A program made the translations under genes and the position numbers. The notes under the pieces are model-generated. The model saw nothing but the letters and a program-made list of their open reading frames with translations. It ran no database searches and was not told the DNA's origin. Positions 34,823 through 37,613 of a DNA stretch of 64,000 nucleotides are shown here, one piece after another. The DNA comes from Sphyrna mokarran (Eukaryota): positions 54,498,001 to 54,562,000 of the forward strand of contig JAGIQG010000004.1 in NCBI GenBank assembly GCA_024679065.1, given 5' to 3'. Within the stretch, counting starts at the first letter, position 1; each line of letters starts with the position of its first letter.

Positions 34823-37613
34823 CTCAGCTTAAAATAATTCCCAACGATGACCACAAACGCCATTCTTATCAATAAAACTGATAACGACACAGAAACAAGA
34901 AATTTGTGACGTCAGCAGCACCTGCAAAAAAAACTACCGAAAATGTAAGATCCAGAGGTATTAAGTTCAATTCAACCAACAAGAAAACCCAGAGACTGAT
35001 GGGATCATATAATCATGTAAATGTATTTTTCTTAATATTCAAAAATGAAATGCCAACATGAAACAATTCACAATCTGAACAATGAATCCTCATTGTAAAA
35101 GATGGTCAAATGTTAAAGTGTTTATCGACGTGTTGTGTCTCAGGCAAAATGACAAATGGAATAACTTTCCTGAATTGAATGAATTAACGTTACCTTCCAA
35201 GTTCTAATTGACTTTAGTGGAGTTTGAAAAGAAACATGAGACACTTGGCAACTATATTTCGGCCTGCTGCGGGTTAGGGTCATGTCTTTAAAAGTGCTGA
35301 AAACTTCATACATTCCCACCGTGCTTCGCTCTTTGGTAGTATAGTTTCAATTTTTGCGTCGTCCTTATACAAGTCACATCGAGGTCTCCGGGGTAAAACT
35401 TAGTTGTTTTACACAATAGAGTCGGGAGAGTAGATGGACGGATTTTGGGCTCAACCAAGCTGATTGTCAGAGTGGGCCGAACTTGGGAAGAAAAAGAACA
35501 TTCTTTATTGGTTGAAATGTTAATTTTTACATTACTTCTATTCAGAACACGAATTTAAGACGGGGCTGTTTAACGTCATGTTTCATTGGAACGTTTTAAA
35601 ATATTATGAAACGTGAAGCTAGAAATTACCTGGCGTCTTTAATGGAAACATTTAAAAAAGTGGTAATGCATATGGTCAGAGAGCCAAGGTGTGCAGAAAG
35701 AAGCTATTCTGGCCATCGTATCTGTGTGAGCTTCATGAAAGGACCACTCCAGTGAACCTTCTTCTGACCAAAGTTTTCACTTTAAGTCTATATCCAACTT
35801 TCCCTTGAGAATTACTATGTACTCACCTTGTTTCCAGCTAATGACTTTCAAACCGCCCAAAACAATTTCTCTTCTCCCCCTTATCCTTTTGTCTTAAATC
35901 TGAGAATTCAGATTAGCGAATTATGTTTGTCTGACTTTCGAGTTGCCACTTTACAATGATACAGGAATGCATTTAGCTCAATATCCCGGTTTCTATACTG
36001 CCACAATAATCCAGTCACATTGACATATTTATCCAATTCACTTTAAAACAGTCAATATATTCTGTTCGCATCAGTGTTTCTGAAAATACACTCAACGTCG
36101 TACCAATCCTGCCCTCCCTTCAACTATTTAGAATTCCTGTCAGAACAGATGAGACTTATTTTAGTTTTAATAGTTAATTGCAATACTTTAATATATATGT
36201 ACTCTATTCTTTTCCAGACATCGTGAGCTTCTTTGACTCGCCAGAACTTTCGCTAGAAGAGCCATAGGGGCGCAAGAAAAACCCCGAGGCCGAGGTTAGA
36301 GGAGTTGAGCGGGAGAATTCCCCCGTGTAAGTGTTGAGAAGAACCGTAATAAATGGTGATATTGTACGTCTATTTGTAAAAGTAATTGTGCTTCTGAAAT
36401 CATAACGTTGCTCCAAAAGAAAGACTTCACTATCTCGAGAACAATCTTTCATGCCAATTCTCACTGAATTGGACTGACCCGTCTAACGCTTTTCCGCAGC
36501 GGAAATTCGTTACGGTTAATGCTTCCTGAAAAATTGTGGGAACTTGCTCAACAAATATTTGAACAGAAACAACGAGAGGAATTATTTCATCGAAATATCA
36601 GGCCATATCTAGCCATCGACTTTGTGTGCATCAACACGAACAGAAAATGCTGGAAAATCTCAGCAGGTCTGACAGTATCTGTGGACAGAGAATCGAACCA
36701 TCGTTTCAGGATAACCTTTCGTCAGAGCTCTGACTTAATCTTCCACTGAAGCTGTAATCACCAATTTGCTGTCAATTGTTCTGCACCACCCCACAAAGTC
36801 AGGTTCTACACATTGCCACCGAGGGAAGAAAATCTTTTCCTCTGTATTCTGCAGGGAAATAATATAATTGACCACGATGCACAGAACATATGTAGAAATG
36901 CCTGTCCGTAAATCGACGATCTCACCCTTCGAGTACCTTGAAGTTGACGCTGGATACATAAAAGTGGACAGGTATCCCATTCCCACACCCTTCTCCATTT
37001 CTTTGGTATTTTAGCAAATATTCATTGCACGACTGACATCGGCACCATCAGCATCAGGAACTCACCGAACACATGGAGCTCCGAGCCGGTTCCATTCCCA
37101 ATCATTCTTCCCCCCCCCCCCCCCCCCCCCCCCCCACCACCACCCCGAAGTACACATAGTGATAGCGGCCAGAATCTCTGAAGCTCACATGCACAAGATG
37201 GAGGGCGGCTCTCCCTTTTTCAAAAGCTTACATTGTCTGTTGCTCGATTCTCCATCATCCGAAAACTCGTCCTCATCATGTCGCCATTAGTGAACCATGA
37301 CATCTGATTCTTCTTGGAACAGTTGGACTGTGCAATAGAAAGTAATGTTTGTTCCGCTGACATCAATTTTGAGTGGCGAGATTTGGGCGATTGTGGAATT
37401 CCCAACAACTATCAGAAAGCCAATATCAACACAAAAAATAAACATCTCATTGTACAGATAAACAAATTTAGAAACGAAATTAAAAAGACCAGTAAAGAAC
37501 CATAAATGGAAGTAAATCAATTGATCAAATATCACTATACAAATATTTGTTCTATTATTAAATATTAAGCTACCTGCGTAAGCAATCCTCAGGATCAGTT
37601 TACGTGGAAGCAT
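34823..37613 (-). pseudogene. Pseudogenised VJ-C1-TM paralogue, activating type (Arg in TM)
   Basis: Leader 37574-37613 (MLPRKLILRIAYA). V exon 37066-37408 (NITFYC...VH*WR...DSGRYHY...GNGTGSELHVF) has a stop, a frameshift, a lost Cys and a poly-G tract. C1 exon 35194-35481 (LLCKTTKFYPGDLDVT/.../YSCQVSH) has at least 2 frameshifts. TM exon 34823-34921 reads LVSVSLSVLLIRMAFVVIVGNYFKLR after a frameshift. Splice sites are retained. Confidence 0.88.

Follow-up and report, generated by a model that had tools for sequence, protein, structure and literature searches.

ITIM-type tyrosine motifs recruit phosphatases, and SIRP receptors combine a V-C1-C1 plan with a lysine for DAP12; in humans, SIRP is flanked by the SEP-domain gene NSFL1C. 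SIRP, CEACAM, SIGLEC and KIR are listed as paired receptor families in the accessible text of PMC5112662, which also describes Xenopus ceacam pairs that lie in opposite orientation and whose likeness is confined to exons. In NKp46 and NKp30, a transmembrane (TM) arginine couples to an aspartate of CD3-zeta or FcR-gamma (PMC6514059, excerpted text). NKp30 has a germline-joined VJ exon according to excerpts of PMC10751288 and PMC11599192, which list PRARP among VJ genes. PRARP/VJ-C1 genes, UrIg and UrIg2 all combine a non-rearranging VJ with C1 (excerpts of PMC10751288 and PMC12227049), with nine C1 domains in UrIg2 and MHC linkage in UrIg (PMC12227049, same excerpt), and teleost NITR genes offer a parallel (PMC7916673, in extract). 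Closest to the genes studied here are V-C1 receptors of cartilaginous fishes, which appear in RefSeq under automatic and mixed labels ('SIRP-alpha-like', 'NCR3LG1-like' and 'tapasin-related-like'); examples are the horn-shark protein P0022 (XP_067906048.1) and the catshark protein P0003 (XP_038661933.1).

We analysed a 64,000-nucleotide stretch of the Sphyrna mokarran genome (the window) that contains two genes of this family. A preliminary description had proposed that one of them, gene B, is the fossil activating twin of its inhibitory neighbour, gene A. We found instead that gene B is quite probably the pseudogene of a distinct, old lineage of a larger receptor cluster, likely of an adaptor-coupled activating type, and not the partner of gene A. 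Gene A itself is intact; its eight exons and 384 codons specify a V domain, a C1 domain, an uncharged TM segment and a tail of three homologous exons that together hold six tyrosine motifs. Its leader resembles the N-termini of named shark relatives. The features assigned to gene A, and one stretch excluded from it, are as follows.

19425..19448, minus strand: 'MLPQKL' stretch; not the gene A leader, likely a chance match
18470..18524, minus strand: leader exon, 245 nt ahead of V; four paralogues have a leader of this type at this distance
17983..18288, minus strand: VJ exon, open; Pfam V-set
15155..15445, minus strand: C1 exon, open; Pfam C1-set
13268..13372, minus strand: TM exon, uncharged; Gly at the family position
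12785..12828, minus strand: first cytoplasmic exon
9329-9219, 8589-8485 and 7909-7772, minus strand: three tail exons, each with two tyrosine motifs, among them LAYATV and LTYAAL of the ITIM type and, as the last one, ALYAEV

The MLPQKL stretch (19448) had been paired with MLPRKL of gene B as a shared leader. This match does not stand, as the stretch is not kept as an exon in a duplicated copy of the block, where its donor is lost, and a family-type leader lies at 18524-18470. An ITIM-like LVYSRV at 20700 was dismissed as a chance occurrence, with no acceptor found and no likeness to family tails. Tail exons 1 and 2 of gene A (within window 9329-7772, minus strand) each finish inside a tyrosine motif that reads YxxT in the spliced form; read-through into the intron would give TTYFQV (ITSM type) or IVYSQV (ITIM type) followed by a stop, and such alternative tail ends could tune signalling.

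Gene B is a leader-VJ-C1-TM unit on the minus strand at 37613-34823, in the same orientation as gene A and about 16 kb from it. The existence of this second unit, with every motif originally quoted from it, was borne out. Its features include two arginine codons in the TM exon.

37574..37613, minus strand: leader exon with ATG and a phase-1 GT donor; like the start of horn-shark P0022, the orthologue
37066..37408, minus strand: VJ exon, broken (TAA, -1 frameshift, second Cys lost, G-rich insertion), with a J-like end
35194..35481, minus strand: C1 exon, broken (frameshifts and TAG relative to P0022); identical in the X1 contig
34823..34921, minus strand: TM exon, split into two frames by a 4-nt deletion
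34884..34886, minus strand: second Arg codon (codon 12), in frame with the splice acceptor and at the Arg/Gly position of the family; Arg in B2 too
34864..34866, minus strand: Arg codon (AGA) of LLIRMAF, on which the activating call was first based; Ile (ATA) in B2, X2 and X4

A frameshift-aware alignment to P0022, in which 63 of 101 aligned V residues are identical, confirmed that gene B carries a stop and several frameshifts. In the assembly sequence, the V exon has a TAA stop at 37289-37287 and a -1 frameshift near 37211, its second cysteine is gone, and it contains a 32-nt G-rich insertion with a 26-G run at 37135-37110. This run is absent from the duplicate of gene B, B2, and its length is uncertain, with read contigs breaking there. 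In the C1 exon, the frame shifts near 35371, 35342 and 35217, and a TAG stands at 35206. Across window 34780-35606, one contig of run X1 is identical to the assembly and free of gaps, and we therefore conclude that the C1 and TM lesions, which it spans, are not consensus errors. This read check has limits: X1 could derive from the very sample that was assembled, and the V lesions, read in the assembly only, fall outside the listed contigs of gene B. Read contigs came from runs X1 to X4, with little coverage from X3, and no RNA run was listed for gene B. Consistent with the earlier report of no ITIM exons behind gene B, we found no family-tail homology between its TM exon and gene A. The V and C1 exons of gene B align to those of gene A with scores that beat 200 of 200 shuffles, while the TM exons score 33 against a shuffle mean of 31, which is not above shuffles (n=200). 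Gene B is a real pseudogene of the VJ-C1 receptor family.

The history of gene B can be followed through its duplicate and its horn-shark counterpart. The block holding genes B and A (window 5-42 kb) recurs on contig C993 at 54.214-54.257 Mb with about 80-90% identity, and the B-A gene order is kept. In B2, the start codon and the C1 donor are gone, and the C1 and TM exons have frameshifts of their own. B2 has no lesion in common with the window copy, B1, and the TM frameshifts of the two copies also differ. The B2 TM exon runs to a stop shortly past the helix. Used as a query, the open V exon of B2 returned one close named protein, P0022, with 69% V identity. A tree of 44 V rows places B1, B2 and P0022 in a clade of their own, with support of 100/100 and a long stem. 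Of 268 candidates, 150 were scored, and among these B1 and B2 alone exceed 45% V identity to P0022; these two copies are also the only DNA matches (n=2). By these sequence comparisons, gene B represents an old lineage of its own and is not the sister of gene A, and P0022 is its orthologue. Because B1 and B2 share no lesion and no other scored candidate comes close to P0022, the B lineage is likely extinct in this genome, through two separate losses after the duplication. The horn-shark orthologue has an open frame; both of its models stop six residues past C1, without a TM exon or a tail. Behind B1 and B2, we found neither a match to the horn-shark C-terminal exon nor any tail homology.

We next consider the arginine by which gene B had been called activating. 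The codon in LLIRMAF is indeed present at 34866-34864, but it is out of frame with the splice acceptor of the TM exon (34921), and B2, X2 and X4 have isoleucine at this site. Parsimony places its origin within the B1 copy, to which it is private. Of the 135 single changes possible in the relevant 15 codons, 11 (about 8%) yield Arg or Lys, so chance decay is enough to explain this residue; the two B copies differ at 5 of the 45 nt. The second arginine, at codon 12, sits immediately ahead of the B1 frameshift, and codon 12 of B2 likewise encodes Arg. The X4 contig carries the 4 nt missing in B1 and has no other TM-exon indel (12 of 12 gap letters accounted for); judged by frame only, its exon is of intact length and holds codon 12 and the hydrophobic stretch in one frame. 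Of the 22 TM exons in the cluster, 11, among them those of B1 and B2, encode Arg at codon 9-12; another 8 encode Gly at codon 8-11, and 3 have neither. Alignment statistics for the gene B TM exon are marginal. In protein comparisons with Arg-TM exons, the observed score was reached by 7 of 300 shuffles for B1 and 28 of 300 for B2, with the best B1 register divided between its two arginines. In DNA comparisons, z values are 1.3-4.1 against four Arg-TM exons, at most 1.9 against inhibitory exons and 3.0 against one Gly-type exon. Three cluster genes with an Arg at the family position have tyrosine-motif tail exons behind them, so the residue alone is no proof of activation. We nevertheless consider an activating-type ancestry for gene B moderately likely, from the codon-12 arginine together with the absent tail. 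The earlier call of an activating gene thus survives in moderate form, on a different residue from the copy-specific one first cited.

Evidence against a B-A pair also comes from the cluster around them. Gene A's V exon gave 38 matches in the genome, 38 of 38 on contig C993. We surveyed C993:54.18-55.04 Mb (862 kb less 3 kb missing) and identified 22 V exons, with one C1 exon per V in 22 of 22 units, of non-rearranging VJ-C1 genes; in the 100 kb beyond each cluster end, no extra V or C1 exons were found. In the V tree, gene A forms a clade with an inhibitory-type paralogue and two opposite-strand genes at 54.877 and 55.007 Mb (support 100/98). The V domains of these two genes are 98% and 95% identical to that of gene A, compared with 30% over 90 columns for gene B, and it is they that are its real twins. 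They lie 360-490 kb from gene A and have an Arg-bearing TM exon without a tyrosine tail. All four Arg-TM genes of this clade (54.877, 54.903, 55.007 and 55.030 Mb) can be spliced at canonical sites into an open V-C1-TM frame, leaders were found for 4 of 4, and the arginine is near the helix start. The activating-type arm of gene A's clade is therefore present, with its function predicted from these open Arg-TM frames, and the proposed loss of the activating gene from this lineage does not hold. What does hold is the broader idea of a family with both inhibitory-type and Arg-TM members, which the 22-gene cluster bears out. The Arg-TM type is also present in catshark and sevengill models. In the four clade genes, the Arg-TM exons (C993:54881156, 54908193, 55011057 and 55035100, plus strand) have a stop just ahead of the donor and so very short tails, in a frame that differs from the catshark and sevengill models.

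Gene A and its twins are alike chiefly in their exons. The V and C1 exons of the twins (C993:54877145-54881270 and 55007768-55011170, plus strand) are 93-95% DNA-identical to those of gene A (window 18288-15155), while the flanks are 55-72% identical and the TM exon about 50%, the same pattern as in the Xenopus ceacam pairs. Between 8 and 16 synonymous changes per exon remain, and the V exon of the 54.877 Mb twin differs by 16 synonymous and 2 non-synonymous codons. These figures are suggestive of exon-limited gene conversion combined with strong selection holding V matched, and purifying selection could account for much of the likeness. A second matched pair (C993:54707976 and 54770837, plus strand) has V exons that differ at 4 of 297 nt and TM exons with Gly in one and Arg in the other at the same site; the Gly gene has a tyrosine-motif tail close behind it. 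Elsewhere on this contig, a second cluster of the family lies at 62.40-63.31 Mb (15 V matches) and an isolated V-C1 unit at 50.24 Mb. Orphan TM or tail exons without V or C1 (C993:54322331-54323797, 54383092-54388698, 54443326-54449922 and 54826124) and C1 remnants (C993:54205997 and 54310030) represent further decayed copies. Of 197 non-repeat ORFs in the 200 kb flanking the cluster, 150 were scanned with Pfam and gave only retroelement pieces, weak sub-cut-off matches and one glutathione S-transferase (GST) exon. The last, of the rho class (L120:9444-9734, minus strand, about 55.08 Mb on C993), is the lone clear non-family gene in the scanned flank ORFs and a possible synteny marker.

Several explanations of gene B can be weighed against these results. 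The original proposal, in which gene B was the activating twin of gene A, marked by the LLIRMAF arginine, and its loss left the inhibitory receptor unopposed, draws on the adjacency of the two genes, their common strand and exon plan, the absence of tail exons behind gene B and the B-A order retained in the duplicated block. We judge it highly improbable, given a V identity far below the 95-98% reached by gene A's real twins, whose frames are open, an arginine that is isoleucine in B2, X2 and X4 and that ordinary single changes can produce, and a leader match that proved false. Alternatively, the B lineage may have encoded a secreted or tail-less decoy whose TM exon was skipped or decayed early. 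The truncated horn-shark models would fit such a molecule, as would the frameshifted TM exons of B1 and B2 and the many TM-less models in this family. However, the two frameshifts are different ones, the X4 exon retains a single frame and its full length, and other TM-less models in the family resemble TM-skipped versions of membrane forms (P0008 versus P0009, and P0012 versus P0011), so that we regard a decoy as unlikely. Less probable still, and doubtful in our view, is a membrane receptor whose edge arginine bound no adaptor, being either neutral or once spliced to a tyrosine tail that is now lost. Genes with a same-site arginine ahead of tyrosine-motif tails provide a precedent (n=3), and the marginal TM statistics leave room for it, but there is no tail remnant behind B1 or B2 and none in the orthologue's models, and the B2 exon stops soon after the helix.

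The reading that we prefer, a pseudogene from an old activating-type lineage, begins with the duplication of the B-A block, after which each B copy was broken by different lesions. In a working B ancestor, the arginine, placed towards the outer end of the membrane helix, would have paired with the aspartate of FcR-gamma or CD3-zeta to give an ITAM signal; this genome contains both a CD3-zeta-like and an FcR-gamma-like TM exon with Asp (n=2). Gene A would act as the brake, by way of its tyrosine motifs. Its matched partners are the two Arg-TM genes on the opposite strand (C993:54.877 and 55.007 Mb), whose frames are open and which probably activate. Tentatively, and with clearly less confidence, we propose that sharks possess a large paired-receptor system with the architecture of antigen-receptor chains. 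A Gly/Arg site at the outer helix edge might set whether a receptor brakes or activates, and gene conversion might keep the V and C1 exons alike between inverted sub-clusters of the inhibitory and activating types; gene B would then be an old activating lineage shared with horn sharks, duplicated, and lost twice independently here. The fate of gene B is ordinary birth-and-death turnover in a poorly described paired-receptor family. The headline of an unopposed inhibitory receptor is wrong, and the surrounding cluster matters more than gene B. With inhibitory and Arg-TM receptors of a shark matched at 95-98% V identity, the cluster allows direct tests, in the oldest jawed vertebrates, of whether ligands are shared, how adaptors are used and whether pathogens drive conversion.

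Compared with known systems, the cluster has its nearest named relatives among chondrichthyans, which account for all 20 of the 20 named among 21 matches, the single match of the B2 V exon and 10 of 10 looked up among 147 matches. The V-C1 relatives display both plans, a neutral TM segment with a tyrosine tail and an Arg-bearing one with a short tail; gene B differs in being broken, and its orthologue in being modelled without TM. Gene B has the plan of this family, with a leader, a single VJ exon with a GxG J motif, one C1 exon and a TM exon. SIRP differs from the cluster units, which have one C1 per V (22 of 22) and arginine. SEP-domain genes, used as the one synteny marker, were absent from C993 and matched on C668 and C1326. 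SIRP-alpha was one of many Ig matches in a search with P0023 (E 3e-15), and PDB searches gave generic Ig matches only. The Arg-TM members likely follow, by analogy, the same signalling principle as NKp30/NCR3 and NKp46, and NKp30 shares the germline-joined VJ exon. Unlike the VJ-C1 family with its C1 exon, however, NKp30 carries only one V domain and maps to the MHC. MHC class I matches fell on C1548 in 53 of 53 cases whereas the cluster is on C993, giving no MHC linkage of the kind that NKp30/NCR3 or UrIg would lead one to expect. Like UrIg, UrIg2 and PRARP/VJ-C1 genes, the shark genes join a non-rearranging VJ to C1, but the nine C1 domains of UrIg2 and the MHC linkage of UrIg set both apart. 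Sequence searches returned no named PRARP sequence. On present sequence criteria, the VJ-C1 family is distinct from NKp30 and UrIg, and neither C1 count nor SEP synteny places it with SIRP. In the literature open to our search, no description of the VJ-C1 family as paired receptors was found. Like the paired families SIRP, CEACAM, SIGLEC and KIR, as listed in the accessible text of PMC5112662, the cluster mixes inhibitory and activating types with near-identical V domains; unlike the members of those families, gene B is not half of a matched pair.
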